DNA of 64,000 nt, taken from the NCBI GenBank assembly GCA_026388545.1, contig JAPLJS010000075.1, positions 9,103 to 73,102 on the forward strand, given 5' to 3'. Source of the stretch: Deltaproteobacteria bacterium. GTDB lineage: Bacteria; Desulfobacterota; Syntrophia; Syntrophales; UBA2185. Under the pieces are notes generated by a model that ran no database searches, was not told the origin of the DNA, and saw only the letters and a program-made list of their open reading frames with translations. The translations under genes were made by a program, and so were the position numbers. Below are positions 8,096 to 40,100 of this stretch, one piece after another. The number at the start of each line of letters is the position of its first letter. Position 1 is the first letter of the stretch.

Positions 8096-8171
8096 AATGA
8101 TGTTTATGACTTTAAGATACAGAATAACTACATCGTTGTAAACAAAAGATGATGTGAATATTCAGAAATAT

Positions 8172-8849: not shown

Positions 8850-9434
8850 TTGAGGAGGCATGCAATGGTGAAAGAATTGATTGTGAAGAACAGGAGCTGC
8901 AGGAGATTTTATGAGAACTACTCAATAGATATTGAAACGTTGAGAGAGCTTGTTGATTGTGCGAGACTCTCTGCGTCGGGGGCAAACCTGCAACCGTTAA
9001 AGTATATTCTTTCCTGCGATTCTCAAAAAAACTCTCTGATATTTTCAAATATTGCATGGGCAGGGTATTTAAAAGAATGGCCGGGTCCTGAGGAGGGGGA
9101 AAGACCATCTGCGTATGTTATCATCCTTGGCGATAGAACCATCAGCCCGACATTCGGGTGCGATCACGGCATCGCTGCTCAAAGTATTCTTCTTGGCGCT
9201 ACGGAAAAGGGTCTGGGAGGGTGTATGATAAACTCTGTGAAGAGGACTGAGCTGCAAAGAGTTCTTACTATACCTGAACAATGTGAAATTCTCCTGGTCA
9301 TAGCAATCGGAAAACCGAAAGAAAAAGTCGTCATCGAACCGGTTGGCGCCAAAGGTGATATACAATACTGGCGGGACAGTGAAGGAGTTCATCATGTGCC
9401 GAAGCGGTCTCTTGATGAAATAATAATTGGCTGA
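8850..9434 (+). CDS. nitroreductase family protein
   Basis: 194-aa ORF. RSCRRF...LRELVDCARLSASGANLQPLKY and the C-terminal EILLVIAIGKP are typical of the NADH/FMN nitroreductase fold. The start may be the internal Met at 8865. Confidence 0.75.
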   Translation: MRRHAMVKELIVKNRSCRRFYENYSIDIETLRELVDCARLSASGANLQPLKYILSCDSQKNSLIFSNIAWAGYLKEWPGPEEGERPSAYVIILGDRTISPTFGCDHGIAAQSILLGATEKGLGGCMINSVKRTELQRVLTIPEQCEILLVIAIGKPKEKVVIEPVGAKGDIQYWRDSEGVHHVPKRSLDEIIIG

Positions 9435-9696
9435 ACCTTACCGAAAAAAATCAAATATCGCTTGAATATAAAAAAATATTGTATATTATAAACGATTGTT
9501 CGACGGAGCATGTCCGTTATCCGTGGGTAGAGTAGGGAAGCGGGTTTAAAAAAAACAGGAATTACCTGTCAAAAATGCCGAATCTGTAAAGGAGGGATGT
9601 GATATTTCGATAAATTTGACGGTGGTGAGTAGGCACACGGAAAATTGGAGATTTAGCGATAAGGTTTGGTTAAATGAGTAATATAAGGAGAACGAT

Positions 9697-11454: not shown

Positions 11455-11503
11455 GAGTAATGGTATAAAAAAACAGGTTTTAATAACAGGATTTAGAGAT
11501 TTC

Positions 11504-23400: not shown

Positions 23401-26133
23401 TTGCCCACGGAAAAAATCACCCTCTCCCAGCTCGAATCCTTCCTTTTCAAGTCTGCCGATATTCTGCGTGGCAAGATGGACGCCTCGGAATTCAAGGAAT
23501 TCATCTTCGGCATGCTCTTCCTCAAACGTCTCTCCGACGAGTTCGACCGCAAGCGTGAGCAACTGCGGAAGAAAGACTTCGCCCATCTGAAGGATCAGCC
23601 CGACCTCATCAACGAACTGTTGGAAGAGAAGACCGCCTACGGCGAGACCTTTTTCGTTCCGGTGCGCGCCCGCTGGCATGAAGCCTGGATCGACCAGAAT
23701 GGTGAGTTGGTTCCGGCCCTGAAAGACCTGAAGCACGACATCGGCAACATGCTCAACAAGGCAATTGCCGCCGTCGAAGAGGAAAATGACGCTCTTGCCG
23801 GGGTTCTCAAAAACAACATCGATTTCAACGCTGTCAAAGGCAAAACCAAGATCCCCGACCAGAAGTGGAAGGATCTGCTGGACCACTTCAACCAGCCCCG
23901 GTTCGTCCTGATTAATGACAACTTCGAGTTTCCCGACCTGCTGGGCGCGGCCTACGAATACCTGATCAAGTTCTTTGCCGACAGCGCGGGTAAGAAAGGC
24001 GGCGAGTTCTACACACCCGCCGAAGTGGTGCGCCTGCTGGTGCAGATTACCAAGCCCGAGGCGGGCAACGAGATCTACGACCCTACGGCCGGGTCCGGCG
24101 GCTTTCTGATTCAATCACACCAATATGTGGAGGAGCAGGGGCAAGATCCCAACGATCTGGCTCTGTACGGCCAAGACTCCAACGGCACCGTCTGGTCGAT
24201 CTGCAACATGAACATGATTCTTCACAATATCACCCGCTTTACCATCGAAAACGGCGACACCCTGGAGGACCCGCTGATCCTGGAAAACGGTCAGGTGCGA
24301 AAGTTCGACCGCGTGCTGGCCAATCCGCCCTTCTCGCAGAATTACAGCCGCGCCACCTTGAAATTCCCCACCCGTTTCCGTGAATGGTGCCCCGAGACCG
24401 GCAAAAAAGCCGATTTGATGTTCGTGCAACACATGCTGGCCAGCCTCAAGCCGCGCGGCCACATGGCCACCATCATGCCCCACGGTGTGCTCTTTCGCGG
24501 CGGTAAGGAAAAGCTGATTCGCGAGATCTTTATCAATGACGACGTGATCGAGGCCATCATCAGCCTGCCGCCCGGCTTGTTTTACGGCACCGGCATCCCC
24601 GCCTGCATCATCGTGGCCAACAAGAACAAGCCCGAAGCCCTCAAGGACAAGGTGCTGTTTATCAATGCCGACCGCGAATACGCCGAGGGCAAGGCCCAGA
24701 ACAAACTGCGCCCCGAAGACATCGAAAAAATCGACTTCGTCTTCACCCATAAGCGGGAAATTCCCCAATACAGCCGCCTGGTGGACAAGGCCGAGATCGT
24801 CGAAACTCATGACTACAACCTCAACATCCGCCGCTATGTGGACAATACCCCCAATCCGGAACCGGAGGATGTGCAGGCCCACCTAATCGGCGGCATTCCC
24901 GAGGCCGAGGTCGCTGCCCGCGCGGCCGACTTTGCCCGCTTCGGGATAAAACCGGATACCCTCTTCCAGCCCGACAAGGTGAAGTCCGCCTCAGGCGGAA
25001 GAGAGGGTGCCCTGGGGCAGCGCCCCGGCTACCTCGATTTCCGCTCAGGGATTGAAACAAAACCCGCCATCAAGACCACGCTCGAAGCCGACCCCGCACT
25101 CTTGCAGGTCATCACCGCTCACCACGAAGCCCTGGAAGCCTGGTGGGCAGTGGCCCGCGAAGACTTTGCCGGGTTGCAGGACGGCAAAAAAATGCCCGAA
25201 GTCCGCCACGAACTGCTGACCACTCTGAAAGACAAGCTCATACCCTTGAACGTGCTCGATGAGTTCAAGAGCGCCGGGGTGTTTGTGAACTGGTGGCAGC
25301 AAATCCGTTATGACTTAAAAACCATCATCTCCACCGGCTGGCACCATAGCTTGATTCCGGATAACTACCTGCTCGCCGCCTTCTTCCAGGTGGAGGCTGA
25401 TGAGATTGAAACATTGGAGGCACAGATCAGCGAGGCCCAGAGCGAACTGGCCGAGGCAGTGGAAACGGCGCAGGAAGTGGCCGCCTATGAGCCGGAAGAA
25501 GATGAAACCGTCACCGCTGCCGTCATAAAAAAAGCCCTCAAGGACCTGATCGACGACCTTCAAGGCAGTTCCAGCGACTCTGCCCGTAAGGAGCTTGCAA
25601 CCCTGCAAGGACAGGAAAAAATCATCACAGCCATTGAAAAGCGCATCAGAGACAGCAAGGCAGTGCTGAAAGCCAGAACCGACGAACTGGAACTTAAACT
25701 CCAACTCAAGCGCTTGGGCGGCGACGAGTTCAAGGCCGAGAGCCAGGAGTTGATCCGGCAGGTGGACGCCCAACTGACGAGCCTCGATAATAACAACAAA
25801 AACGATAAGAAGAAAATTACCGCCCTGAACAAGGACAAAGCCGCCCTCGAAGCACGTCTTGCCAGAACCGGCGCGATCCTTACCGCCATCGGCGGACAAC
25901 TCATCGAGGAGGAAGCCCGCAGTCTGATCCTGAAAAAGCTCTACGACCTCGCCCACAACGAGCTGAACCGCTATCTGAATGCCGAAAAGCGCGGGTTGTT
26001 TGCTGTGGTGGAAAACCTCTGGGACAAGTACGCCGTCTCCAGCCGTGAACTGGAAGAAGAACGAGCACAAACCCTGAAGGAACTTGATGGGTTTCTGAAA
26101 AGGCTGGGCTATCTGGAAGCCAAGACATCTTAG
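23401..26133 (+). CDS. hsdM: Type I restriction-modification DNA methyltransferase subunit, unusually long (910 aa) with a coiled-coil C-terminal extension
   Basis: TTG start with GGAG 9 nt upstream. The HsdM N-domain reads [36 protein letters not shown]. The AdoMet motif is [12 protein letters not shown] and the catalytic motif is LANPPFS (NPPF at 24322-24333). About 430 further residues are rich in heptad-like E/K/L. Confidence 0.9.
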
Positions 26134-26199
26134 GCAAAGACAAAAACAGCGATTCCGGCATCCTTTTGCTGGAGAGGCGCCCTGGTAAGTAAACCGTGC

Positions 26200-26228
26200 T
26201 TGACATCACGTAATTTTGTGAGTAAAAT
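26200..26228 (+). promoter_or_regulatory. near-consensus sigma70-type promoter upstream of the AAA/DUF4143 gene
   Basis: TTGACA (26200-26205), a 17-nt spacer, then TAAAAT (26223-26228). It lies 69 nt upstream of the ATG at 26297. This is a sequence match only. Confidence 0.4.
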
Positions 26229-26296
26229 CACTCAGCGTATTGAGTAAATTGTAAATCACGCTTTATCCGTGACGCTCATTCAGGAGGTTCGCAGGG

Positions 26297-27493
26297 ATGT
26301 ATCATCGCTCCATGTATCATATGCTGGTGAAGAGGCTGCAGGAACCGCGCCGGTTCATCCAGGTCCTCGCCGGGCCGAGGCAAACGGGGAAGACCACGAT
26401 CGTGCGCCAGGTTGTAGACGAGAACCTAATCCCGGTCCACTACGCCTCCGCGGACGAGCCCACCCTCCAGAGCCGGGCATGGATCGAGCAGCAGTGGGAA
26501 ACGGGGAGGCTCCTGGTTGCCGAGACGGGGGGCAAGGGCGGGGCTCTCCTGGTTCTGGATGAGGTCCAGAAGGTCACCGGCTGGTCCGAGGTTGTAAAAA
26601 GGCTTTGGGACAGCGACACCCACAATCGTATATCCCTCAAGGTCGTCCTCCTGGGTTCGGCGCCGCTCCTGATTCAGCGGGGGCTGACCGAAAGCCTCGC
26701 CGGCCGGTTTGAGATCATTCCCGTGATTCACTGGTCATACGCCGAAATGCGGGAGGCTTTCGGGTGGGATCTTGACCGCTTCATCTATTTCGGCGGCTAT
26801 CCCGGAGCGGCCGACCTGATCGCCGACCGACAACGCTGGTCGCGTTACATCATCGATGCACTCATCGAGACGACCCTTTCCCGAGACATCCTGCTCCTGA
26901 CGCGGGTCGACAAACCCGCCCTGCTCAGGCGCCTTTTTCAACTCGGTTGCTCCTTCTCCGGACAGATACTTTCCTACCAGAAAATGATCGGGCAGCTCCA
27001 GGATGCGGGCAATACGACGACCCTGTCCCATTACCTGGAACTGCTGGCCGGCGCCGGCATGCTGACCGGCCTGCAAAAGTTTGCCGCGCATCAGGTCCGC
27101 GAGCGGGCATCGAGCCCCAAGCTTCAGGTATTGAACACGGCGCTCATCACTGCGCAATCTCGGCTTACCTTCGATGAGGCGCGAAAGGATCGGGAGTTTT
27201 GGGGCAGACTGGTGGAATCGGCGGTTGGGGCGCATCTGATCAACAGCGCCACGGGAACGGGCATCGAATTGTTCTACTGGCGCGAGCGTGGCAGGGAGGT
27301 CGATTTTATCCTGCGTTCCGGCAAGACCGTGGTCGCCATCGAGGTCAAGAGCGGCTTACGTAAAGTAGGACTTCCGGGCATGGTCGCCTTTGACAAGACC
27401 TTCAAACCGCAGCGGAAACTGCTGGCCGGCGGCGACGGCATTCCTCTGGAAAAGTTCATGCTCACCCCGGCGGCGGCGTGGATCGCAGGATGA
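26297..27493 (+). CDS. AAA-family ATPase with DUF4143-like C-terminal domain
   Basis: 398-aa ORF with RBS AGGAGG upstream, Walker A LAGPRQTGKTT and Walker B LLVLDEVQ. The C-terminal half (...YPGAADL...ETTLSRDIL...ELFYWRERGREVDFIL) is typical of the AAA_14/DUF4143 family as I recall it. Confidence 0.75.
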   Translation: MYHRSMYHMLVKRLQEPRRFIQVLAGPRQTGKTTIVRQVVDENLIPVHYASADEPTLQSRAWIEQQWETGRLLVAETGGKGGALLVLDEVQKVTGWSEVVKRLWDSDTHNRISLKVVLLGSAPLLIQRGLTESLAGRFEIIPVIHWSYAEMREAFGWDLDRFIYFGGYPGAADLIADRQRWSRYIIDALIETTLSRDILLLTRVDKPALLRRLFQLGCSFSGQILSYQKMIGQLQDAGNTTTLSHYLELLAGAGMLTGLQKFAAHQVRERASSPKLQVLNTALITAQSRLTFDEARKDREFWGRLVESAVGAHLINSATGTGIELFYWRERGREVDFILRSGKTVVAIEVKSGLRKVGLPGMVAFDKTFKPQRKLLAGGDGIPLEKFMLTPAAAWIAG

Positions 27494-27501
27494 ATGTCTT
27501 G

Positions 27502-27692
27502 ACCCACAACGAGATAAACCGCTATCTGAATGCCGAAAAGCGTGGGTTGTTTGCTATGGTGGAAAATCTCTGGGCAAGTACGCCGTCTCCAGCCGTGAAC
27601 TGGAGCGGGAGCGTTCCGAAACCCTGCGGAAACTCGATGGCTTCCTCGAAGCCCTCGGTTATTATGGAGAAAAAGTGAAGAGTGAAGCTTAA
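27502..27692 (+). pseudogene. relic of the 3' end of a second hsdM allele (frameshifted)
   Basis: It aligns to 25951-26133 of the intact hsdM ([44 protein letters not shown]). One base is missing relative to hsdM (CTCTGGG-CAAGTAC versus CTCTGGGACAAGTAC). Its stop at 27690-27692 overlaps the start of the next gene. Confidence 0.85.
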
Positions 27693-28806
27693 GATATTCG
27701 TTAGCAGTGTTCAAAAGGAGTTTCAGCAAGTTCGTCTAGACTTGAAGGCGTTCCTCACAGGTGACGCTGTTCTCCATCGGTTCATCTCTGAGGTTTTCCT
27801 TTTTGAGGAACTTCCGGCGAAAGACCGCCGTGCCGACCAGGTTTACCTGGAAGAAGTGAAACGGTGTGACATCTATCTGGGAATCTTTGGTTACGACTAC
27901 GGCAACGAGGATAAGGATGGCGTCTCTCCTACCGAACACGAATACAACTATGCCGGCAAACATCGGAAAACCCGGCTTATCTATGTCTGGGGATCGGACG
28001 AAAAGAAGCGTGCGCCAAAAATGCGGCAACTGGTCAGTAACGCAAGCTCCGAGCTGATAAGACGCCGTATCGAAAACTTAAGTGCCCTAACGTCCGAAGT
28101 CTATGCCAGTCTTGTGGATTACCTCGACGGGTTGGGTGCCCTGCGTGTTCCACCCTTTGATACCTCCGTCTGTGCTGGCGCTACCTTTCATCACCTTTCC
28201 CGTAAGCGTATCGAGTGGTTTCTGGAAACTGCTCGCCGGGAACGCAATTTCCCCCTCAAGCAAAGCACGACGACGCAGGCCCTGCTCACCCATCTGAACC
28301 TGTCGGAAAAGGGAAAACCGACAAATGCGGCTCTGCTTCTCTTCGGAGCTGCCCCCCAGCGTTTTCACCGCACGGCTGAAACCAAATGCGTGCACTGCCA
28401 CGGCGACGAATATCGCCGCCCCTTCGCCTCCCAGCAGATCTATACCGGAGATGTCTTTGAGCAGGCCGATCAGGCGCGCGACTTTGTCCTTGCCAAGATC
28501 AATCGGGCGGTAGGTATCCGTGCAGAGAGCAATGTCGCGCCTGCCACCTACGAGCTTCCACCAGACGCTATCGGTGAGGCAATTGTTAACGCTGTTGCCC
28601 ACAGGGATTATCACAGCAACGCATCTGTTGAAGTTCGTCTCTTTTCCAACCGTCTTGAAGTCTGGAACCCGGGTAGGCTGCCCGGCACGTTGACATTCGA
28701 CGATTTGCGCCATGACCACCCTTCGGTGCCTCACAACCCTCTTATTGCCGAATCGCTTTACCTGACGCGATATATCGAAAAGCGGGCTCAGGCACTCAGC
28801 GTATGA
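27682..28806 (+). CDS. DUF4062-like N-domain fused to a RecG-like/HATPase_c_4 DNA-binding core, N-terminal ORF of a frameshifted gene
   Basis: GTG start. The N-terminus KIFVSSVQKEFQQVRLDLKAFL...CDIYLGIFGYDYG matches the DUF4062 pattern. The core reads NAALLLFGAAPQRF...IGEAIVNAVAHRDYHSNASVEVRLFSNRLEVWNPGRLPG...HNPLIAESLYLTRYIEK. Reading then breaks where the family continues with xGSGxxRM. Confidence 0.7.
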   Translation: MKLKIFVSSVQKEFQQVRLDLKAFLTGDAVLHRFISEVFLFEELPAKDRRADQVYLEEVKRCDIYLGIFGYDYGNEDKDGVSPTEHEYNYAGKHRKTRLIYVWGSDEKKRAPKMRQLVSNASSELIRRRIENLSALTSEVYASLVDYLDGLGALRVPPFDTSVCAGATFHHLSRKRIEWFLETARRERNFPLKQSTTTQALLTHLNLSEKGKPTNAALLLFGAAPQRFHRTAETKCVHCHGDEYRRPFASQQIYTGDVFEQADQARDFVLAKINRAVGIRAESNVAPATYELPPDAIGEAIVNAVAHRDYHSNASVEVRLFSNRLEVWNPGRLPGTLTFDDLRHDHPSVPHNPLIAESLYLTRYIEKRAQALSV

Positions 28807-29126
28807 TCGAACTTTGCAGGGAAGCAGGTTTGCCGGAGCCACAATTCGAGCAACGCAGTGGTTCATTCGTTATTACTCTCTGGCGGGACTGGTTGACTCC
28901 GGATGTGCTGGCCAAATTCAATCTGAATGAACGGCAAATCATGGGACTTGCCCTTCTTCGGTCGGAAGGGCGTATCACAAGTGGAACTTATCAGGAACAG
29001 ACCGGTGTAAGCCGGCAAACGGCGACTCGCGATTTGGAAGATATGGTATTAAAGGGCATTCTTGATCGTCATGGAACTCGCCGTGGAGCTTTTTATGTGA
29101 AGGCTAAGGGTATGCCTCAAGTATGA
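28803..29126 (+). CDS. C-terminal ORF of the same frameshifted gene (end of the HATPase_c_4 core plus a winged helix)
   Basis: In this frame the sequence upstream of the Met already reads AGSGTQRMIELCREAGLPEPQFEQRSGSFVITLWR, which is the expected continuation of ORF 27682-28806. A wHTH follows (ITSGTYQEQTGVSRQTATRDLEDMVLKGIL). Confidence 0.7.
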   Translation: MIELCREAGLPEPQFEQRSGSFVITLWRDWLTPDVLAKFNLNERQIMGLALLRSEGRITSGTYQEQTGVSRQTATRDLEDMVLKGILDRHGTRRGAFYVKAKGMPQV

Positions 29127-29274
29127 CTCATATGCCCCTTGGCGAGCAGCATTCTTAATGCCTCAGATATGCCCTAAATGCCTCAAGAAATCTTTGGGGG
29201 CGAAATCTGGTTTGGCGGATTGAAATGCCCTTCATGACCCGTCTTAAGAAAGGGGCCAAAGGGGCCATTTTCAA

Positions 29275-29844
29275 GTGTTGCAGGAATGTGCCACTCATCG
29301 GAAAGGGCTCACAAAGGGCTCAAAGGGCTCATGGTGTATGGAAGCCCAATGTAAACAGGATAGATATAATATGAATGCTTCTCAACTGGAAAGTGGACAT
29401 AAACTGGACAAACGGGACATTCTAACGGCGACTTCTAAAGGGGACACAAAGGGGACAAAGGGGACATTTTCAAGCAATGTCGGCCTTGACGAGCCTGAGT
29501 TTGCCTTTACGGACTGCTTTGTCGTTACTATCCGAAGAAAGCCTGAATTGGCCTTTAAGGCCGTAGGCGGGATAACCGGGGAAGTCACTGGGGAAGTTAC
29601 CGGGGAAGTAAAGAAACTCCTGACGGTACTGGTTGGAGAGATGAAACGTACAGACATCCAGAAGGCTCTGGCCATGCGGCATGAAGACTACTTCAGGGAG
29701 GCTTATCTCATTCCGGCGCTAACTGCCGATGTTATCGAAATGACAATCCCCGGCAAACCCACAAGCAGCAAACAGAAATACCGGCTTACCCAGAAAGGGC
29801 GCGACCTCATCGCGAAGCTGGCTGAAGGGGGAAAAGTGAAATGA
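29275..29844 (+). CDS. orphan C-terminal tail module of a RecG-like/Fic-associated protein, probably a gene remnant kept in frame
   Basis: Only the last ~125 codons look like protein: GLDEPEFAFTDCFVVTIRRKP...(TGEV)x3...KKLLTVLVGEMKRTDIQKALAMRHEDYFREAYLIPALTADVIEMTIPGKPTSSKQKYRLTQKGRDL. The start is uncertain (GTG at 29275 or ATG at 29371). The stop overlaps the hsdS start (ATGA). Confidence 0.45.
   Translation: MLQECATHRKGLTKGSKGSWCMEAQCKQDRYNMNASQLESGHKLDKRDILTATSKGDTKGTKGTFSSNVGLDEPEFAFTDCFVVTIRRKPELAFKAVGGITGEVTGEVTGEVKKLLTVLVGEMKRTDIQKALAMRHEDYFREAYLIPALTADVIEMTIPGKPTSSKQKYRLTQKGRDLIAKLAEGGKVK
29575..29610 (+). repeat. 3 x 12-bp tandem repeat encoding (TGEV)3
   Basis: ACCGGGGAAGTC / ACTGGGGAAGTT / ACCGGGGAAGTA, differing only at third codon positions. 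Confidence 0.8.
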
Positions 29845-31130
29845 GCGCTGTGGAAGGGTGGAAAACAGGTCGGCTCGGCGAATTATGCTCGATTGAGATT
29901 GGTGGAACTCCATCCCGTAGTAATCCAGACTTCTGGGATGCATCGAAGGATACGTCGAATCACTGGGTATCTATCAGAGACCTTAATCAAACTGTAATTA
30001 CTGATACTGCTGAACATATCTCAGATTCTGGGGTTAAGCATTCTAATGTGAAATTGCAGAATCCGGGAACCGTCCTTCTCAGTTTCAAGTTAAGCATTGG
30101 CCGAGTTGCTTTTGCTGGTGTGCCTCTCTATACGAATGAGGCAATTGCAGGCTTAAACTCAGATCAGATTAACACAAATTATTTATTCCATGGTCTTCAT
30201 CATTGGGACCTTTTGCAGGGTGTGGATCAGGCAATCAAGGGGGCGACTTTAAACAAGGAAAAGCTGAAAAAGATAACATTTAAGTATCCAGGCTCACTAT
30301 CCGAACAAACCAAAATCGCCGATATTCTCTCGACGGTGGATCGGGCGATTGAACAAACCGAGGCGTTGATTGCCAAACATCAGCGCATCAAGACCGGCCT
30401 GATGCAGGACCTCCTCACCCGCGGCATCGACGAACACGGCAACCTCCGCTCCGAAAAAACCCACCAATTTAAAAACTCCCCGCTGGGGCGGATTCCGGTG
30501 GAGTGGGAGATAAAATCATTCGGGGAGATTACAGGAAAATACGGAGGGATCCTCCAGACAGGGCCGTTTGGAAGTCAGCTCCATTCTTATGAGTATGTAG
30601 CTGACGGTGTTCCTGTGGTAATGCCCCAGGACATTGCTTCAAACGGCATTTCAACCGCTAATATTGCACAGATAACTGAGAAAAAAGCCCAATTTCTTAC
30701 AAGACACCGCATGATTCTGGGTGATTTGGTATTTGCCAGACGTGGCGATTTATCAAGGTGCGCTGTCATAGGCGAAAAAGAACGAGGATGGCTGTGCGGT
30801 ACTGGATGCCTGCTTATGAGACCACCCGTCAAGGTGCTTTCACCAAGATGGACAGCAAATACATACAGATTTCATTCAAGCCAATTGCAGGTTGCTGTAA
30901 GCGCCGTAGGTTCAACAATGCCCAATCTAAATACAGGCATTCTATCGGATATCAAGGTCGCTCTGCCATCAATTGAGGAACAGACCCGCATTGAGAGCCA
31001 ATTACAAGCTGTTGACTATGGCGAAGTAGCAGTTAGGAATCGACTGCATAAACTCCGCTCCCTTAAAGCCGCTCTCATGCAAGACTTGTTAACGGGGGAA
31101 AAGCGTGTCACCGCACTTTTGGATAATTAA
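29841..31130 (+). CDS. hsdS: Type I restriction-modification specificity subunit (two target-recognition domains)
   Basis: 429-aa ORF. The conserved central region reads EQTKIADILSTVDRAIEQTEALIAKHQRIKTGLMQDLLTRGID. The conserved C-terminal region reads EEQTRIESQLQAVD...LHKLRSLKAALMQDLLTGEKRV. Two variable blocks lie between them. Confidence 0.9.
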   Translation: MSAVEGWKTGRLGELCSIEIGGTPSRSNPDFWDASKDTSNHWVSIRDLNQTVITDTAEHISDSGVKHSNVKLQNPGTVLLSFKLSIGRVAFAGVPLYTNEAIAGLNSDQINTNYLFHGLHHWDLLQGVDQAIKGATLNKEKLKKITFKYPGSLSEQTKIADILSTVDRAIEQTEALIAKHQRIKTGLMQDLLTRGIDEHGNLRSEKTHQFKNSPLGRIPVEWEIKSFGEITGKYGGILQTGPFGSQLHSYEYVADGVPVVMPQDIASNGISTANIAQITEKKAQFLTRHRMILGDLVFARRGDLSRCAVIGEKERGWLCGTGCLLMRPPVKVLSPRWTANTYRFHSSQLQVAVSAVGSTMPNLNTGILSDIKVALPSIEEQTRIESQLQAVDYGEVAVRNRLHKLRSLKAALMQDLLTGEKRVTALLDN

Positions 31131-31211
31131 TAGGAGATCTTCTATGACTGTAAAAGACATTGCCATCTGGGACATTCACGCCTGCAAGGTCGGCAGGCAG
31201 GGAGAACCATC

Positions 31212-31475
31212 ATGAAAGTTGAAGGGCAAGACTGGCATTGGCAAAATGGAAATGGCCTTTCCGTGCAGATCGGGAAAGTAAACGATCATGGCCAAAGATG
31301 TGGTGGCCATCGCGGTGTCTTGGGTTCGGACTTCAACCAGTATGCCTATAAGGTTGAGTGTACTTATTGCGGCCACGTTTATGGGGCAAATGGGAGCGAC
31401 ATGCACGAACGCCTATGCCCCGCCTGCCAAGGTGGAGCCATGGGAATCCGTTTCTGGCAGGTCCAAGAAGGCTAA
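31212..31475 (+). CDS. small zinc-ribbon protein (87 aa), unknown function
   Basis: CTYC (31359-31370) and CPAC (31416-31427) sit 15 residues apart, forming a CxxC...CxxC knuckle pair. GGGAGA lies 7 nt upstream of the ATG. It is on the same strand and packed between hsdS and the giant ORF. Confidence 0.55.
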   Translation: MKVEGQDWHWQNGNGLSVQIGKVNDHGQRCGGHRGVLGSDFNQYAYKVECTYCGHVYGANGSDMHERLCPACQGGAMGIRFWQVQEG

Positions 31476-31544
31476 CTGCCTGAAAAGAAATAATAGATAT
31501 ATCAATATGATTAATGTAGATTTCATGTTCCAAGGAGCGACATC

Positions 31545-34500
31545 ATGGGACCGGAAATAGTCGTCGGAATTCTCGGGGGATGGTTGTGGAAAAAGCTTAC
31601 TGATGCCACCGAGTCTACAGATGAGAATATTGCGATCAAAAAGGCCTTCGACGCTGCTGTAGGAAAAGGTTATGAGCTTTTTTCAAAAAAGTACAGTAAC
31701 TTTGCTGCCTCATTATTCGATCAGGCTTTCTTGGAAAACTACGCAGGTCCTGAGTTAAGCAAATATCTGACGCGTCATGAATATCCTAATCCCGCAAGCA
31801 TTGCTGCAGCATATAGTTCTCAGTTCCATGTATCGTTACCAGATGGGGTTGAAGAAGCAGTCGCCGATTTCCTTGATTTCATCTTACAGGCACTGAAGGA
31901 ACAACCGGCGCTTCAAGATATTCTCGATCGGAGAGAGATCGAAGATACTAACCGGTTAGTTGGTGAAGTCCACAAGGCCATAATATCGACTGAAGAAGAC
32001 TGGCAAACTCTTGAGGATGCAAGTTGTGATGCAATTGCCCGCATTAGGGACGATATTGCAAACACAGTGTGTTTGACTCTCGGTCCTGACAAGAAAATGC
32101 TTAATGTAGTCTTTCAGGAAAAAGGCGCAGCCATTTTCATAGGCCCTTCCGGTTGCGGCAAATCAGCACTGGCTAAACGAATCGCCATGAATTCAGGTTT
32201 GTTTTCACGTTTCATATGGTTGACTGCCGAAATCTTAAATAAACCGACGTTAGTTGAAACCGAGAGGTCGCTTGGCCTGCGCCATACCTTTCACGCTGTT
32301 TTTGCTAATGCCAAAGGACTGCGAATCCTTTTGGTTGTGGATGCAATGGAATCCCTCACCAATGAGGGCATCGCCAATATGGCCCACGTGATGCGCGCCA
32401 CAAAAGAAGCCGGTCACCGGACCGGCTGGAGTTATCTTCTCATTTCACAACCAGAAGGCTGGGATCAGGTCGCCTTTAACCTTCGCCGCTCCGGGGTGTC
32501 ATTGGATGATTTTCAAGTAATACAAGCATCAGGACCTTCAAAAAAGGATGTTCAATGCGTGCTCTCCTGTATGCCTGGCCTTCTGCCCATAGCCTATAGC
32601 CCCACACTTCCCGATATTCTGACCAATCTCAAGCTTCTGGATCACGTGGCGAGTCAGGCAAGAATTAAGCCGCCTGAAGCAGGAGCAGCATGGACAAGTG
32701 CGGCACAGGTCGTTGATTGGGTTTGGGAAGGCTGGCTTGGAACAGGCAAGGGCCGATACGCACGTGGCGGAGTACTAAAGCTCCTCGCTGAGATAGAAGC
32801 CGATTCCTTCGGGAGGGGAATTGCACTCTCTCGACTGTCCGCAGAGCAACATGCTATTCTCGCACCCCTTGAAGACGATGAAAAGCTAATCAACGTCCGT
32901 AACGAGCGAGTCTTTTTTCGCCACGATTCGACTGCCGATTGGGCCAGATACCTCAGTTTAGCGGGTGAGGTTCCACTATCTCCTCGCCTGCGAGAATTAT
33001 CTTCATACCCGAAATGGAATACGGCAATCCGCTTGGTGGGACAGCGAGTCTTGGACAAGGGTGATTCAACCGGAACGGAGTGGGCGGCACTGCTTGAGGA
33101 GGTTGCCGATGGATCGCCGCGAGGAGAAGCAGCACAGGACCTGCTTCTTGATGCCGTGATTCTGTCCACAAACTCAACAACACATCTGGACAAGATTTGG
33201 CCGATCATCGTGAAAGAAAATGGCAAGCTCCTCCAACGTCTATTGAACCGGTTCCTCCATGTGGCGACAATTCCTGACCGACAGATTCTTCTCATAGCGC
33301 CGGAAGATGAAAAAATGCGACGCTATCTCGCCAGTACTATGAGGGAGCCGATATTTATCTATTGGTGGGCTTTTGTGGACTGGGTTTACCGGAATTTGGA
33401 GAATGTCATTAATTTGGCTCCAATCCCCTTGGCCAAGATATGCACCATATGGTTAAGCAATATGTCCATCGCCAAGGGTAAGCAAAAACCTTGGACACGG
33501 AGGAAGCAAGTGGCGGAAATGGCGCGCGCACTGGCCAGGGAATTACAGGCGAAAGATATGGAACATTCCCCTGTAAGAGAAGCGGGAAAAGTAGCATATA
33601 AAGCAGCATTTCTGGCTGCTTCCGAAATCCCCGATGAGATAGGCCAATGGGCGCTGGAAATGGCCAAGCGTCGTCCTCCGTCGCCAGACATTTTGGCACG
33701 TCAAGAAGCTTACTTGAATAAGGAAGCAGAACGACAGAAACAGCTCGCAGATCCCGCATATCAAGAAAGAATGAATGAAATGGCTTATCTTACGACGCCT
33801 ATATTAGCACTGGGACCATTGAGAGATCCATGGCCAGACGGACCTCTGGCGATGGTTGACCATACCTTCCAGAAGGGTGCACTTGATATGTGGACACTGT
33901 TGCCTCTTATGGCGGCAAAACCGGCACTTGCTCAAGAACTTATTCTATCCCTTTCCATCGAGCATCCTTCCCATGAAAGAGAGGGCTCTATATCATCGTA
34001 TGAGTGGTGTGGACTTCAATTCGGCAACGACGGCACGCCAGCGATGTATTTTCGCGGCCCTTTTCTTGTCTTCCTGCAAATCAATCCGAAAGTCGCCTTG
34101 GATACAATTATCCGGCTTGTGAATTTTGCTACAGACAGATTTTGTGAACGGATGTCAAAGCATCGAGGATACGGAGGAAAGGCTCAGGCCTGGAGCGTGC
34201 AAATTCCTCTCGCCGATGGAGAAGCGGTCTGGTGTGGTGACCACCGGGTCTTCGGATTCTTCCGAGGCGAAACATTTAACACTGCTCTATTATCTTCTGC
34301 ACTAATGGCTGTGGAGAAATGGCTATACGATAAGATTGAAAAGGGCGAAGAAGCAGACGAATGGATCGGACAAATTCTTGAAGGTAGCCGGTCAGTGGCT
34401 TTCGCCGGGCTGCTTCTAACTGTAGGGAAGAAGTCTCCCGCCCTACTGGAGGGGATTCTTTTGCCCTTGCTCGGCGCCTGGCAATTCTATCAATGGGACC

Positions 34501-36500
34501 AAAGTCTCATCATGAATGGTGACGTTTGGAGAATCTCTATGATGAATTGGGTGTCTCACGGCGAGAAGATCTACGACCAGGTCATCGCATGGCATACCCT
34601 TTCGCATCGTAAGGCTGATCTTTCCAACGAAGCTTTACGGCTCTTCTTTAGCAGTCAACCTGTTAGGGACTTTTTTAATGAGATGTATGTACGATGGACG
34701 TCTGACGAAGAGACGCGGGAGGCGACAAAATACATCGCTGAACGCTTCAATCCCAAGAACTATGCGCTGAAAAAGGGAAGCGACGAGAAGCACGTGGAAA
34801 TCCATTTTCAGTGGCCTGAGCACATGCAGGAGGAAACCTCTGCAAATTTAAAAAAATCCGAAGATGGAATGCTCTTACTCTCTTTCCCTGTGAAGTGCCG
34901 TCGTATACTGGATGGAGAAATAAGCCTATCCAGCACTGAATTGGAAGAGTTCTGGTCCCAAATCCAGCATATCTCTACCATGGCTGAGCAAGATATTGAA
35001 ATCGAGAGGGCAAGCCAGCGTGTGGATGCGCTTTGCGGAGGCATTGCCGTCTTATTCCTCCACCACAGGGAGTGGTTGACAGAATTCCCGGAAAAGGAAG
35101 AATGGTGCATCAAATATATTTTCGATACTCTCGCTGACCCACCCCGACCATCTCAGTTTGATTGCGAGGATTCAATAAGCGGGCTGCATTGGGATGCATT
35201 TGTCGGAGAAGCGGGAGTTCTTCTTCTTACAGAAGAACCAGACAATGAGCATGCAAGATTTGTTGCAGCTCATGGGGTAATGGCCTATCATGAGGAAGCA
35301 ACCGGCAGTACACTTACCCGCGCATTCCGTCTGCGTGAGAAACTCGGAGAAGAATTCACCCGCCTCCTCAACTTAAGTCTCCTCTGGACAACCCTGAAAT
35401 ATTTGCGGCCGATGGAACATCATGAAAGTGCAGAAATAGAAAAGTGGGGAAGGTGGGTGGATAGACTTTTTAGATATTTTGTTGCCGGCAAGGTACCTTC
35501 TGCCCCCATTTCCGTCGGGCGTTTGGCTAAGGCTGGATCGCGCATTTACGAAAGACGGTATCACCGAAGGCAATGCAAGCGTTATCCGGGATATGTGCCG
35601 AAGCGACTACTTTGGAACGGCGGGATGCACCCCTCTTTGCTTAGAAAATCGCTGTCATGGCTCAGCGCTGCAAAGATGAACGACCCTCATCTGCCGCTAG
35701 GACTCATCGATGATATTTCTTTGGCTCTTTTGGAATTCAGCATATCAGCTGCCTCCCTAGAGGATGATAATGAATACTACGACCATCACAATATTCCTAA
35801 TGAATTTGACCTATGGGTATTTGAGGTTCTCTCCTCGCATATTTTGAAGAGAGCAATTCCCGATGAGTCCTCTAAATTCTGGAAGCCCCTTTTCGATGTC
35901 GGCCCACCTCTGCATAATTGGCCGAAGTTTTTCCTTATGTCATGGTTTAGAACCTGTTTGCAGTCAGCGGAGTGTCTAGAAGATTTCACTAGGCATTGGG
36001 CCACAATGATCGCTTATGTCTTGGATCATCCGAAATGGAAAGAAACGAATTCACAACAATACTATGATAGCGAGGAAGTGATTTGCCAACTTATGGGAAT
36101 GGATTCTGAGGCCCGAATTGTTGGGGAGGGCCGCTTTGAAAAAGCGCTGGAATCTCTTCAACCTTATTACGATAGTTGGAGAAAACGGTGGCTGCAGGGG
36201 CAGCATAGCCTTATGAATTTCTGCAGGCTTTTGACATACCCCGCTGCAAGGCCGCTCCGAACCAAGGGTGTCTTATGGGTACGCGAAGTCTTGACGGGCG
36301 AGACCCATTTTGGCTCAAGAGAAAAGTATCTTGAGGAAGCGCTACTAAACATGCTTCACATTTTCTGGGCTGAACATCGAAAAATCTTGCATGATGATCC
36401 CTCGCTTAAAGAAGCCTTTTTGGATATCCTCACATGGCTTGTCCAGCGGCTAAATCCGGGAGCATTAGAGCTTCAGGATGAGTTTATCAGAAGCGGATAA
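31545..36500 (+). CDS. giant (1651 aa) P-loop NTPase of unrecognised family, STAND-like tripartite layout
   Basis: An uninterrupted 4956-nt ORF with AAGGAG 8 nt upstream. Walker A is FIGPSGCGKSALAKR (GPSGCGKS = 32142-32165) and the Walker B-like motif is RILLVVDAME (32322-32351). It has a ~190-aa helical N-region and a ~1300-aa Trp-rich C-region in which I recognise no catalytic motif. Confidence 0.85.
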   Translation: MGPEIVVGILGGWLWKKLTDATESTDENIAIKKAFDAAVGKGYELFSKKYSNFAASLFDQAFLENYAGPELSKYLTRHEYPNPASIAAAYSSQFHVSLPDGVEEAVADFLDFILQALKEQPALQDILDRREIEDTNRLVGEVHKAIISTEEDWQTLEDASCDAIARIRDDIANTVCLTLGPDKKMLNVVFQEKGAAIFIGPSGCGKSALAKRIAMNSGLFSRFIWLTAEILNKPTLVETERSLGLRHTFHAVFANAKGLRILLVVDAMESLTNEGIANMAHVMRATKEAGHRTGWSYLLISQPEGWDQVAFNLRRSGVSLDDFQVIQASGPSKKDVQCVLSCMPGLLPIAYSPTLPDILTNLKLLDHVASQARIKPPEAGAAWTSAAQVVDWVWEGWLGTGKGRYARGGVLKLLAEIEADSFGRGIALSRLSAEQHAILAPLEDDEKLINVRNERVFFRHDSTADWARYLSLAGEVPLSPRLRELSSYPKWNTAIRLVGQRVLDKGDSTGTEWAALLEEVADGSPRGEAAQDLLLDAVILSTNSTTHLDKIWPIIVKENGKLLQRLLNRFLHVATIPDRQILLIAPEDEKMRRYLASTMREPIFIYWWAFVDWVYRNLENVINLAPIPLAKICTIWLSNMSIAKGKQKPWTRRKQVAEMARALARELQAKDMEHSPVREAGKVAYKAAFLAASEIPDEIGQWALEMAKRRPPSPDILARQEAYLNKEAERQKQLADPAYQERMNEMAYLTTPILALGPLRDPWPDGPLAMVDHTFQKGALDMWTLLPLMAAKPALAQELILSLSIEHPSHEREGSISSYEWCGLQFGNDGTPAMYFRGPFLVFLQINPKVALDTIIRLVNFATDRFCERMSKHRGYGGKAQAWSVQIPLADGEAVWCGDHRVFGFFRGETFNTALLSSALMAVEKWLYDKIEKGEEADEWIGQILEGSRSVAFAGLLLTVGKKSPALLEGILLPLLGAWQFYQWDQSLIMNGDVWRISMMNWVSHGEKIYDQVIAWHTLSHRKADLSNEALRLFFSSQPVRDFFNEMYVRWTSDEETREATKYIAERFNPKNYALKKGSDEKHVEIHFQWPEHMQEETSANLKKSEDGMLLLSFPVKCRRILDGEISLSSTELEEFWSQIQHISTMAEQDIEIERASQRVDALCGGIAVLFLHHREWLTEFPEKEEWCIKYIFDTLADPPRPSQFDCEDSISGLHWDAFVGEAGVLLLTEEPDNEHARFVAAHGVMAYHEEATGSTLTRAFRLREKLGEEFTRLLNLSLLWTTLKYLRPMEHHESAEIEKWGRWVDRLFRYFVAGKVPSAPISVGRLAKAGSRIYERRYHRRQCKRYPGYVPKRLLWNGGMHPSLLRKSLSWLSAAKMNDPHLPLGLIDDISLALLEFSISAASLEDDNEYYDHHNIPNEFDLWVFEVLSSHILKRAIPDESSKFWKPLFDVGPPLHNWPKFFLMSWFRTCLQSAECLEDFTRHWATMIAYVLDHPKWKETNSQQYYDSEEVICQLMGMDSEARIVGEGRFEKALESLQPYYDSWRKRWLQGQHSLMNFCRLLTYPAARPLRTKGVLWVREVLTGETHFGSREKYLEEALLNMLHIFWAEHRKILHDDPSLKEAFLDILTWLVQRLNPGALELQDEFIRSG

Positions 36501-36733
36501 GTTAAGAGAAAAAGGGACGCTTTCCGTATAAATTATTGTTCATTCTTTTGGGAGCGGCCTGTCTCAGAGGAATAAAGGACAGGTTCTAATTATCTTTGAG
36601 ACAATGTGTAACAATAGAATTGCCCCCTTTTGTCATAGTGCGAGGGTCCCATTAACAAAAAAAACACCCCATTACATCAAGCACAACGAGCGCAACCACT
36701 CTCCAAGAACCCTCTGTGGAGGGAGGATATATA

Positions 36734-37114
36734 ATGACTGACCGCTACACTCCGACATGCTACATAAGCCCCGGCATTCTGCATAGTATCGAGCAGATTG
36801 GGGAGGCTTTGAGTAATCTCCGGGAGGGGTCTGACAATGCTATTGTTCCCGTTCTGCGGCGCGGCAACCGCATCAAAACCACTCAGGCATCGCTGGCAAT
36901 CGAAGGCAACTCGCTGAGGCTGGAACAGGTCACGGCGGTACTGTCCGGCAAACGGGTGTTGGCGCAACCCCGTGAAATTCAGGAGGTGCGAAACGCGAGC
37001 GATCAAGAAAGCGACCATCAAAGCGACCAAGTAATATGTCTGATTTGCGCCCGCAATCAGAAATACCGCCTGACAGCGCACGGCTTACAATTGCTGAACA
37101 AAGGGGAAATCTAA
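36734..37114 (+). pseudogene. internally deleted fic gene (Fic_N region fused to the extreme C-terminal tail, catalytic core missing)
   Basis: GGAGG RBS, then MTDRYTP...ISPGILHSIEQIGEAL...PVLRRGNRIKTTQASLAIEGNSLRLEQVTAVLSGKRVLAQPREIQEVRNA, a Fic N-terminal region with the S-x-x-x-E-G motif at 36890-36910. This joins directly to ...ARNQKYRLTAHGLQLL, the tail seen in 29275-29844. No HPFxxGNGR motif is present. The stop overlaps the hsdR ATG (TAATG). Confidence 0.7.
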
Positions 37115-40100
37115 TGCAGGACAAAACGCCACAGTACATCAAGATCGACGAGCGCAATCACGTCGAGAAGCCCCTACTCGATCAGCTTGACGGGCTGGGC
37201 TGGGAGGTCATCGATTTTGACGGCAAGCAGCACCCCGGTGACAGCTACCGCCAGAGCTTCACAGAGGTGGTGATGCTGCCGGTTCTGCGGGCGCAACTCA
37301 AGGTCATCAACGACTGGCTGGAAGACGATCAGGTGGAGGAGGTGATCAAACAGCTCACGGCGAACTTTCCCGGTGCGGGATTAATTCAAAACAACCGCCA
37401 CGCCTTTACCCTGCTGCTGGAGAACACCAGTGTCAGCGAGAACCGCCGAACGGGAGAGAAAAGCCCGACCGTATGTTTTGTAGACTTTGACCATCAGGAG
37501 AACAACCGCTTTATCGCCGTCTGCCAGCTCAAGGTGCGCATCCTGGGCACCGAGTACCACATCGTTCCGGACATCGTCCTGTTCCTGAACGGTCTGCCGG
37601 TGGCGGTGATCGAGTGCAAGTCGCCCAAGGTCAAAGACGCCATCCCCGAAGCCATCGACCAGTTACTGCGCTATGGCGAGCAGCGCGGAGCGAAGGGAGA
37701 GGGCAGTGCGCCGCTTTTCTATTACAACCAGATCGTGATCGCCACCTGCAGAAATGAGGCCAAGTTCGGCACCATCACCACCCATAGCGAGAAGCACTTC
37801 TACCGCTGGGCCGATCCCTATCCCCGCACAGTGGATGATCTGGAGCACGGCGGCAGCGGCCCCAACGATCAGCAGCGCCTGGTCGCCGGGATGCTGGACC
37901 GCGACAATCTGCTGGATATCATCCGGACCTTCACCCTCTTTTCGAGCAACGACAAGGGCGAGACGATCAAGATCGTGGGGCGCTACCAGCAGTTCCGCAC
38001 CGTCAAGCTGGCGGTGAAGCGCCTGCTTACGGGCCAAACCCCGCGCGAGCGCAGCGGCATCATCTGGCACACCCAGGGCTCGGGCAAATCGCTGACCATG
38101 ATGTTCATGGTGCGGGAGATGTATCGTCATGCCCGGCTCTCTCGCTGGAAAGTGGTCTTTGTGACCGATCGCACCCAGTTGGAAGGCCAGCTAACTGAGA
38201 CCAGCAGGAGCATCGACTTTACGGTCAAGGTGGCGGACAGCATCAGGAAGCTCAAGGAACTGCTGGGCTCGGATTCCTCGGATCTGGTCATGGCCATGAT
38301 CCATAAGTTCCGTGAAGCCGATCTGACCGAGACCTTCCCGGAGCTGAATGCCAGCCCGAACATTCTGGTGATGACCGACGAAGCCCACCGCTCCCAATAC
38401 GCCATGCTCGGGGCCAATCTCGACAAGGGCATCCCCAACGCCGCCCGCATCGGCTACACCGGCACGCCCATCGACAAGACCGAACGGGTTTTCGGCGACT
38501 ACATCGATAAATACACCATGCGCCAGTCCATCGATGACGGCGTGACGCTGGAGATTGTTTACGAAGGCCGCACCCACAACGCCGAAGTGGCCGATCAGAC
38601 CGGCATGGACACGGCTTTCGCAGATGTCTTCAGCGACTACAACCTCCAAGAGCGCCTGAAGATTCTCGGTTACGGCTCCCGCGACGCTTATCTGGAAGCC
38701 GAGCCCACCATCGAGGCCAAGGCCAAAGACATGGTGACCCACTACCTGACCCATATATTTCCCAATGGCTACAAGGCGCAAGTAGTGGCCACCTCCCGCG
38801 AGGCGGCAGTGCGTTACAAGAAGCACATAGACAACGCCCTGGCGGCTGCCCTCGCCGACCTTAAACAGACCAATCCACGGAGGCTCGACCTCGACCAGCT
38901 GAGTAAGCTGAAGACGGATTTCATCATCTCCGGCAGTCACAACGACCTGCCTCATCTCAAGGCCTATTCGGACAGTTCCAGGCACGAGGCGAGCATCAAA
39001 AGCTTCAAGATGGCCTTCGGGGGCGAGGAGGAAGGTGTCACCGGGGACATGGGGATCTTGATTGTGATGAATATGCTCATTACCGGCTTTGATGCCCCGG
39101 TGGAGCAGGTGATGTATCTGGACAAGGTCATTGTGGCCCACAATCTTCTTCAGGCCATCGCCCGCGTCAATCGTGTGGCCGGTGAGATGAAGGACAAGGG
39201 CTTCGTGGTTGATTATGTGGGCATCGGCCACCACCTGAAGAAGGCCATCGACACCTACGATGAGCGCGAACAAAAGGAAGTGCTCGACACCTTGAGCTTT
39301 CCCGAGGAGGAACTGCGTGAACTACGAGCCAGCCATGCCGCCGTCATGGATCTGCTTAAAAACCACGGTCTGACGGACCTGACCGATCACGATGCGTTCT
39401 TTGATCTCTTTTATGACGAAGATCTGCGTTTCGATTACATGCTGGCATTCAAGAATCTGACTCAGTGCCTGAACGTGGTCTTTCCCGCCCGGCAGGCCCT
39501 TGACTATATGGCCGACTACCAGGCCCTTGCCGCGATCAATGTGATGGCTGCCAAACACTTCCGCGATGAGCGACTGAGCATGAAAGGCATCCTGCCCAAG
39601 CTGCGCGGCATCACCGATGCCTATCTGGAGTCAAAGGGGATTGAGGTAAAGGTCGAGCCGATCTCCATTCTCGATGCGGATTTTCAGAAACAGGTCGGCA
39701 ATCGGAGCCGCACCAAGACCAAGGCGGCGGAGGTGGAGCACGCCATTCGCCACCACCTCGATGTCGAGCTGGACGACGACCCCGATCTGCAAGCCTCCTT
39801 TGCGGAGGCGCTGGCGGTGATTTTCAAGGAGTTCCGCGACAACTGGAACAAGATCTACGAGGAACTGGAGAAACTGCGGGCGCGCATTATCGATGTCGGC
39901 AAGGAACCGACCTATGGGTTGCACCGCAAGAAGCAGATGCCGCTCTTCCGGATGTTCAAGCGAGAAATCTTCGGGGAATTCTTTGGGCAAGACGGCGTTC
40001 AACTGCCGGAAGGGGCGCTTGGGATAGCGGAAAGGATGAGTGCGGAAGATAAAATCAGCCACCTGGTTGATTTGACGCAGCAGTCCTTCCTCGTGGTGGA

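Follow-up and report, generated by a model that had tools for sequence, protein, structure and literature searches.

A probable recent frameshift in a DUF4062/NIR-GHKL-winged-helix gene carried in a type I restriction-modification operon

Results

A gene between hsdM and hsdS is split by a one-nucleotide deletion

The locus described here lies in a 64,000-nt stretch of contig JAPLJS010000075.1 from a Deltaproteobacteria bacterium (assembly GCA_026388545.1), the whole of which we refer to as the window. Between hsdM and hsdS of a type I restriction-modification (R-M) operon, the window carries two overlapping open reading frames (ORFs), 27682-28806 and 28803-29126, and translation of both frames reveals that they are one gene, split by a 1-nt deletion (Table 1). 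The first of them, ORF1, has a GTG start and encodes 374 aa, with ...LYLTRYIEKRAQALSV as its C-terminal end, and the -1 frame across the break reads ...YRKAGSGTQRMIELCREAGLPEPQFEQRSGSFVITL... and, in another excerpt of this continuation, ...YRKAGSGTQRMIELCREAGLPEPQFEQRSGSFVITLWRDWLT..., running on to a stop at 29124-29126. The stop codon of ORF1 shares bases with an ATG at 28803 (ATGA). The Pfam profile HATPase_c_4 is split collinearly over the two frames, its positions 2-58 matching the end of ORF1 and its positions 54-89 the start of the second frame, which is direct evidence for a frameshift within a single gene. Alignment with intact homologues, which read ...YIEKAGSGTQRMIELC... at the frame-switch site, locates the break between K367 and A368 of ...YIEK/AGSGTQRM.... 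A search of 5.8 billion proteins gave 5544 significant matches among the candidates scored, the best 120 of which all carry PF13271 and PF13749 and are 78-93% identical to ORF1; the 116 of these 120 that are 470-500 aa long form the family alignment used below. In more than 116 close relatives the gene is a single ORF, encoding 478-496 aa. The first-pass annotation of this DNA, made from the letters alone, had joined the two ORFs into one gene with a 1-nt homopolymer frameshift, and the split profile, the intact homologues and the in-frame relatives described next confirm it. Its proviso that the ORFs might normally be separate genes was checked against the same homologues, and the split form was not seen among those examined.

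As for the lesion itself, that annotation had proposed a repair in either of two homopolymer runs, A4 or G3 (28784-28786). The window reads ATC GAA AAG CGG GCT at this point, and the two closest loci in a type I context (L003 and L006) read ATC GAA AAA GCT/GCG GGC/GGT. All 43 family copies found at the lesion site, in 41 species-representative loci, are in frame through Y-I-E-K/R-x-G-S/T-G, and a nearly identical contig from another study (X3, see below) contains one additional A. Because of these codons, the extra A and the in-frame relatives, the lesion is, as judged by comparison, one A lost from an A5 run, and the A4 part of the earlier proposal stands (GAA AAA GCx). A repair in the G3 run, which would give K-R-G, was rejected, as the AAA/AAG codon of homologues is followed by a GCx/GTx codon for Ala or some other small or hydrophobic residue; the extra A in the X3 contig also speaks against it.

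Residues 1-367 of ORF1 are 92-93% identical to intact homologues of 487 aa. The intact product is a protein of ~481 aa in three parts: a DUF4062/NIR head, a GHKL ATPase (PF13749) and, at the C terminus, a winged helix-turn-helix (wHTH) that is variable. For structural information we used an AlphaFold2 (AF2) model of a 92%-identical homologue, P0007, which has a predicted local distance difference test (pLDDT) score of 89.4. The frameshift occurs at residue 368, directly before an invariant G-S-G-T box, and, when it is mapped onto this model, the ATPase fold loses its last helix and two strands and the protein its predicted DNA-binding tail.

The deletion is probably genuine and recent

We read the alleles of the gene from assembled Logan contigs of four sequencing runs (X1, X2, X3 and X6). 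X1, the likely source run, covers 2001 nt without a difference, at a depth of 19, and has A4; X2 and X6, which are other samples of the study that X1 belongs to, also have A4 at the site and no differences. The X3 contig, from a different study, shows an A put in behind 28777, that is, the intact A5, and one other differing letter in 172 nt (~99.5% identical). This insertion is credible despite low depth, since it puts the gene back in frame and yields the codons that the closest relatives use. When the read-through protein (X at the break) is compared with the 116 close homologues at the 233 columns conserved to at least 95%, only one private substitution emerges, D323N, against a family median of two, and the gene has therefore not decayed further. 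A4 probably reflects a real deletion that recently inactivated the gene in one local population, an intact allele still circulating elsewhere, and we put at about 0.8 the probability that the window copy is a recent pseudogene and that the gene is off in its host organism. Among the three options first offered for the break (recent inactivation, misassembly at a homopolymer, expression through frameshifting), recent inactivation is the one best supported by the A4 and A5 contigs, the L003 and L006 codons and the near absence of decay. Two points weigh against it: the depth of the A5 contig in X3 is 4.2, and the alleles were read from contigs alone, beyond whose reach lie allele frequencies and systematic platform error.

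The most serious competitor, which we nevertheless consider unlikely, is an artefact, with an organism that is truly A5 and intact and an A missing through homopolymer sequencing or assembly error. The site is indeed a homopolymer and the evidence comes from contigs; moreover, X1, X2 and X6 all belong to one study, so probably to one platform and pipeline, and other metagenome-assembled genomes (MAGs) with a family member (e.g., L045) contain many frameshifts typical of long-read error. However, the independent contigs of three samples agree on A4 with zero other differences, in the source run at the depth given above, a run of four is too short to be a short-read error hotspot, and the large neighbors hsdM, hsdS, hsdR and a 1651-aa gene are uninterrupted. 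It is very unlikely that the two ORFs now work as a split system, in which a 374-aa NADase with a truncated ATPase would accompany a 107-aa wHTH protein made from the ATG at 28803 by ATGA coupling. The cut falls inside the Bergerat fold, costing helix 371-381 and strands 388-401 in the model and parting the N-box from the G-S-G-T box; an NADase head set free from regulation would probably be either inert or toxic; and a natural split form is missing from the homologues examined. These objections outweigh the presence of the ATGA overlap, the identity of the Met at 28803 with the conserved M of ...TQRMIEL... and an almost nil sequence decay. Least likely of all is a bypass, by a -1 ribosomal slip on GA-AAA-G or by polymerase slippage on the A run, yielding some full-length protein or a phase switch. 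A-AAG is a known bacterial slippery motif, which counts in favor of such a slip, and re-pairing of tRNA-Lys from AAG to AAA would give exactly the wild-type ...IEKAGSG.... The 43 family copies and the nearly identical X3 allele are nonetheless in frame at the site, a tract of four bases is much shorter than those known to cause phase variation or transcriptional slippage, and, as in-frame relatives share the downstream sequence, a conserved stimulatory element is not implied; nor is there any sign of selection for such a slip.

Alongside the recent inactivation that we favor, two residues of the window copy deserve mention. S208 (28303-28305) is L in close homologues and in the X3 allele, and N323 (28648-28650), shortly before the ATPase motif W-N-P-G, is D in 114 of 117 sequences; either could be a neutral variant or early relaxed selection. 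Several MAG loci (L045, L039 and L042-L044) have the gene in multiple frames, and in L045 this extends to res and mod. The L045 pattern looks like long-read homopolymer error, not biology, and errors of this type make frameshift counts across MAGs an unreliable measure of pseudogenization.

The intact protein combines a probable NADase head with a GHKL ATPase and a winged helix

The N-terminal head matches PF13271 (DUF4062) over the full profile (positions 1-82, residues 4-91) with an E value of 1.7e-20 and 73.4 bits against a cut-off of 24.7. Its putative catalytic glutamate is E85 (codon 27934-27936), within the motif S82-P-T-E85-H-E87-Y. A profile of 53 diverse members matches the DUF4062 domain of KpSwz (PDB 10wc_A) over residues 2-172, including the first stalk helix, with an E value of 9.7e-14, and in this hidden Markov model (HMM) alignment the T-E of KpSwz (chain residue 82; adding the construct offset of 15 makes this E97) is aligned to T84-E85. 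Of the 53 members, at least 90% keep E85 and 100% keep E87, and the window copy has both residues. When the P0007 model was submitted to Foldseek, the fold of the head matched nucleoside deoxyribosyltransferase (8pqt), TIR-STING (9lmq) and the TIR domains of RPS4 and SARM1. According to three 2026 preprints, DUF4062/NIR is an abortive-infection effector hydrolyzing nicotinamide adenine dinucleotide (NAD+) in Swarozyc, Evangelion, Vulcan, Vesta and Avs2; an NADase activity that requires the glutamate is reported there for KpSwz, PsAvs2, Vulcan, Vesta and TEP1 (10.64898/2026.05.01.722283; 10.64898/2026.09.04.749371), E97 of KpSwz is described as needed for defence, and KpSwz E97, PsAvs2 E108 and TEP1 E1008 are given as equivalent catalytic glutamates. 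On sequence and modeled fold, the head is probably an NADase.

The core belongs to the GHKL ATPases, which have a Bergerat fold. In the window, PF13749 appears as two collinear partial matches of 46.9 and 29.2 bits (cut-off 26); it is carried by intact relatives according to precomputed domains, and scores 69-145 bits in the relatives scanned. The N-box residues are E299 (28576-28578) and N303 (28588-28590), and the G369-S-G371-T box, which directly follows the break, is out of frame in the window copy. E299, N303, G369 and G371 are invariant in the 53 members, and N329-P-G331 is kept in at least 90%. The family profile matches DIP2311 (3lmm) with an E value of 4.9e-15 in sequence, and the P0007 model matches it in fold with an E value of 7e-15 over ~365 columns; the model also matches the catalytic cores of histidine kinases. 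In RzAgo, PF13749 binds and hydrolyzes ATP through E314/N318, and its ATP binding drives a tetramerization that activates the N-terminal Schlafen nuclease (preprint 10.64898/2026.05.29.728809). The correspondence of E299/N303 to these two residues was set by motif spacing, not by direct alignment. Both domain calls of the first-pass annotation, DUF4062 for the head and HATPase_c_4 for the core, thus prove correct, and the label "domain of unknown function" in the name DUF4062 has been overtaken by the preprints, in which DUF4062 is a TIR-like NADase.

As for the tail, it gives weak Pfam matches to HTH_11, DIP2311-like_C and SoFic-like_C, and residues 407-475 of the P0007 model form a winged helix. 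Among the 116 close homologues, column identity is 0.7-0.9 up to residue ~400 and drops to 0.3-0.45 over the final ~80. The intact homologue falls into no NCBIfam family, and in the literature on HATPase_c_4 and COG2865 we found nothing functional beyond the papers cited here. The GHKL region partially matches Argonaute-associated models of PADLOC; membership of such systems was rejected, these partial matches being read as the shared PF13749 domain.

The C-terminal tail and adjoining repeat arrays vary together

The 3' ends of 33 of 37 family genes have at least one array of three direct repeats of ~8 bp at a spacing of exactly 11+9 bp, which overlaps the last codons or lies just downstream; two arrays are found in 18 genes. 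As a control, 1.8% of random 165-nt stretches from the same loci contain an 11+9 array, and seven other spacings tested were seen in 0-2 loci each. The repeat unit varies by allele (GGGCTCA, GGGGCCA, CAGGACA, ACCCGTCA, ATGAGACA, ATGCCTCA and others). Loci that share a repeated 6-mer have more similar wHTH tails (identity of 0.50 vs. 0.43, a difference that none of 5000 label permutations reach) but cores that are no more alike (0.74 vs. 0.75). Comparison across loci shows that tail and repeats travel and vary together, and we consider the 11+9 repeats to be putative binding sites of the wHTH.

In the window, the first of two arrays built on the unit ATGCCYCA overlaps the last codons and the stop of the gene. 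L024 and L043 use the same unit; among the loci compared (L043 being outside the comparison), it is the tail of L024 that is closest. Further downstream there are four more arrays whose units are used by other alleles. The 64-kb window has five (11,9) arrays in all, and four of them fall within 29110-29465. Two 27-nt stretches ending in ATTTTCAAG (29249-29275 and 29448-29474) are 93% identical. The region 29249-29474 looks like a pile-up of relics from successive replacements of the 3' cassette. Next to it lies an orphan C-terminal cassette, with an E value of 1.5e-22 for Fic-like_C (Pfam), which by BLASTP matches the last ~120 aa of P0203, P0131, P0128 and other DUF4062-GHKL proteins with Fic-like_C; the window thus appears to keep relics of earlier cassettes. 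The 189-aa ORF that spans this cassette (29275-29844) was rejected as an independent Fic-related gene, since its first ~70 codons are translated repeats (KGLTKGSKGS, KGDTKGTKGT) and its residues 70-187 match the C-terminal cassette of the family.

The family is large and shares its chassis with Schlafen-headed proteins

In an all-against-library search, 13,793 representatives reached E<=0.001 and 698 reached E<=1e-30. Of the 150 best 50%-identity clusters, about 57 have an alignment that starts at residue 1-5 and extends past residue 390. Others align only from residue ~155 on, at 38-48% identity, and all scanned matches that start there carry SLFN_AlbA_2 and HATPase_c_4 (+HTH). By domain content, therefore, one GHKL-HTH chassis carries either a Schlafen or an NIR head, and the head swap relative to AlbA_2/Schlafen relatives, proposed in the first-pass annotation, is borne out. 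The fusion is not rare: the best 120 homologues, the library search and the many phyla represented show a family that is large, strongly conserved and spread by horizontal transfer. PF04326 (SLFN_AlbA_2) has no match in the ORF1 product at E<=0.01, and in terms of sequence the window protein is a sister architecture sharing the chassis, not a Schlatpase member. The type I operon of L006 encodes both NIR-headed and SLFN_AlbA_2-headed GHKL-HTH proteins (9995-11461 and 17270-18613). Two unusual proteins were also encountered: P0152 (897 aa) is a tandem of weak TIR_2 plus GHKL followed by DUF4062 plus GHKL, and P0123 (2918 aa) is matched by the query in four separate stretches, with two PF13749 and two SLFN_AlbA_2 stretches in Pfam. 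Both may be fused or mis-called multi-gene arrays of the GHKL chassis.

We surveyed the genomic context in 44 loci of GTDB species representatives, clustering neighboring ORFs by ORF/BLAST and annotating cluster representatives. These loci span Thermodesulfobacteriota, Nitrospirota, Acidobacteriota, Verrucomicrobiota, Pseudomonadota, Spirochaetota, Clostridia and others. In ~18 of the 44 the gene sits between a gene for a ResIII plus RE_endonuc protein (~1030 aa) and that for a type III methyltransferase (PADLOC MTase_III, E = 0), with a UvrD-like helicase often next after this type III res/mod context. It follows an HKD-SNF2 helicase in four loci (the downstream gene in L007 is an Eco57I/type IIG-like methylase) and hsdM in three (L003, L006 and, loosely, L023), and three more adjoin a TOTE-type AEP-primase/helicase. 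The remaining loci are mixed or cut by contig ends, with, for example, SIR2-STAND, KAP NTPase, a Fic gene and some non-defence genes. Within the taxonomic family of the window, 2 of 21 other genomes searched have the full-length fusion. On the strength of this survey, the gene is a mobile passenger of R-M-type operons generally, and not of type I in particular; the earlier picture of a hitchhiker of type I operons is not supported, nor is a regular position between hsdM and hsdS. In L024, the second ORF upstream of the family member, beyond a 185-aa ORF, is a NUDIX-NrtR-type gene (8054-9247). NrtR proteins are regulators of NAD metabolism, and this neighbor may be a coincidence or a hint of an NAD link.

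The host operon of the window copy

The long hsdM of the window matches positions 1-758 of 834 in the PADLOC model MTase_I PDLC03031 and shares 82-84% identity with those of L003 and L006, so that it represents an established subtype and not a local oddity. The AAA_14/DUF4143 gene is bracketed by copies of the hsdM end, the relic being a diverged copy of the resident one (25945-26150). When the relic was aligned with the hsdM-gene junctions of L003 and L006, its last 60 nt proved nearly identical to those of L003, apart from one missing base (GGG-CAAG), and closer to them than to the resident hsdM end. Since the relic keeps this L003-type junction, the comparison shows that the AAA_14/DUF4143 gene was inserted later between hsdM and the gene described here. 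Its product gives a full-length match to the PADLOC candidate system PDC-S01 (E 1e-178), and the 1651-aa P-loop protein encoded at 31545-36500 a weak local match to Avs4 (NCBIfam NF041815, 62 bits vs. a cut-off of 1500; PADLOC E 1e-12). The hsdR match in L003 (7474-10604) shifts frame near residue ~857 (7474-9966, then 9972-10604), and L003 may carry a frameshifted hsdR alongside an intact NIR-GHKL gene.

Table 1. Features of the gene, its repeat arrays and its host operon (window coordinates)
Feature	Coordinates	Strand	Content and evidence
ORF1	27682..28806	+	NIR/DUF4062 head, connecting helix, most of GHKL; ends with 7 out-of-frame codons and TGA
DUF4062/NIR TIR-like domain	27691..28071	+	Residues ~4-130; Pfam PF13271
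GHKL (Bergerat-fold) ATPase	28315..28884	+	Residues ~212-401 of the read-through protein; Pfam PF13749
Frameshift site	28778..28781	+	A4; A5 in the intact form (GAA AAA GCG GGC...)
-1 frame continuation	28779..29126	+	End of GHKL and wHTH (~28908-29108), stop at 29124-29126
Two triple-repeat arrays	29110..29185	+	Unit ATGCCYCA; starts at 29112/29123/29132 and 29158/29169/29178, both 11+9
Four further 9/11-spaced arrays	29249..29474	+	Units GGGGCC, GGGCTC, nTGGAC, GGGGAC
Orphan C-terminal cassette	29482..29844	+	End of GHKL (GLDEPEF...) and Fic-like_C winged helix; stop overlaps the ATG of hsdS
Host type I R-M operon	23401..40293	+	Pfam, PADLOC, NCBIfam
hsdM	23401-26133	+	910 aa, ~430 aa beyond the methyltransferase domains
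AAA_14/DUF4143 gene	26297-27493	+	Between hsdM and the gene described here
hsdM 3'-end relic	27502..27692	+	Keeps the overlapping hsdM-stop/gene-start junction and a GGAG ribosome-binding site
hsdS	29841-31130	+	
Avs4-like NTPase	31545-36500	+	
hsdR	37036-40293	+	

Discussion

How might the intact protein work? The wHTH would hold it on the triple-repeat DNA sites at the 3' end of its own gene, supplying site-specific DNA anchoring or regulation at the R-M operon. By analogy with RzAgo, ATP-dependent oligomerization of the GHKL core would activate the NIR head, and KpSwz and TEP1, TIR-like NADases that are activated by assembly, point the same way. Oligomerization would bring the TIR-like heads together, leading to NAD+ hydrolysis, and the ensuing NAD+ depletion would cause growth arrest (abortive infection). 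The NADase activity, the ATP switch, the binding to DNA sites and the role in defence are all elements that we infer. A tentative proposal for the family as a whole, to which we give clearly less than even odds, is that of a DNA-site-anchored NADase coupled to R-M. The winged helix of each allele would recognize its own 11+9 arrays, tail and sites would be exchanged as a cassette, and the protein would guard or time R-M and kill by NAD+ depletion when R-M is subverted. Several considerations weigh against the reading of the intact protein given above. The function of NIR-GHKL-wHTH proteins is argued from homology, not from biochemistry or phage work; PADLOC 2.0 has no model for this architecture; an identity of 63-93% across phyla over residues 1-400 is unusual for a defence gene; and wHTH and repeat unit could co-vary because they are physically linked in a single recombining cassette, not because one binds the other.

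A more doubtful alternative is that the family is mainly a DNA-binding regulator of R-M operons, resembling controller (C) proteins, which binds the 11+9 arrays upstream of mod or hsdS and in which the head is a sensor or a degenerate module. In most loci a wHTH protein is indeed accompanied by operator-like arrays between its gene and the downstream methylase or specificity gene, databases name it a "predicted HTH transcriptional regulator," and its conservation is unusually strong. A degenerate head, however, is difficult to square with a catalytic glutamate and other active-site positions of the NADase that are invariant or nearly so, and with intact ATPase motifs, and some members are found outside R-M operons, in defence islands beside SIR2-STAND and KAP NTPase genes. 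Regulator and effector roles, moreover, do not exclude each other.

The NADase activity of DUF4062/NIR and the ATP-driven oligomerization switch of PF13749 were both shown experimentally only in 2026. The NIR-GHKL fusion brings them together in a passenger of R-M operons that ranks among the most conserved and the most widely transferred, and, judged by its domains, it combines a known head with a known chassis and is a variant of known parts. It offers a natural effector-swap experiment, with a Schlafen nuclease or a predicted TIR-like NADase on one chassis, and a built-in co-varying pair, namely the predicted DNA-binding tail and its putative DNA sites. The window copy mainly shows how fast such genes can be lost, and it is of value as a dated case of decay for which an intact sister allele exists in nature, not as a working system.

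The closest known relatives of this architecture are the Schlatpases (COG2865; SLFN_AlbA_2 plus PF13749 plus a C-terminal HTH, including DIP2311, 3LMM, and the RzAgo module), which have the same GHKL-HTH chassis at 38-48% identity, share the E-x3-N ATPase motif and also occur in and around R-M operons. They differ in their SLFN/AlbA_2 nuclease head, which is here replaced by DUF4062/NIR, and the one SLFN paralogue checked (in L006) lacks 11+9 arrays at its 3' end, unlike the window family. With the NIR defences (Swarozyc, represented by KpSwz, 10wc; Evangelion, Eva01; Vulcan; and NIR-Avs2), the protein shares a homologous head and, in KpSwz, an aligned catalytic glutamate. As in single-protein NIR defences, an N-terminal effector is joined to a C-terminal sensing or auxiliary part, and the genes spread horizontally and lie among defence genes. 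However, the alignment with the KpSwz chain ends at residue ~172, and the auxiliary part is a GHKL ATPase plus wHTH in place of a portal-binding AUX, HEAT repeats or STAND-TPR; the auxiliary parts of Swarozyc, Evangelion, Vulcan and Vesta, including the alkaline phosphatase partner, were not found, the neighbors here being R-M genes. Unlike NIR defences, the window family is embedded inside R-M operons and accompanied by putatively cognate DNA repeat arrays, and the main texts of the NIR, Swarozyc and Evangelion preprints mention no HATPase, RecG or HTH architecture. A third comparison is with PrrC/RloC, a latent suicide-type effector whose gene lies between hsd genes (the prr locus). The window gene occupies an analogous position, and its product belongs to an unrelated family, with a predicted NADase and a GHKL ATPase instead of an anticodon nuclease and an ABC-type ATPase. 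If the tentative coupling of this family to R-M is right, a PrrC-like logic would be carried out by unrelated parts.

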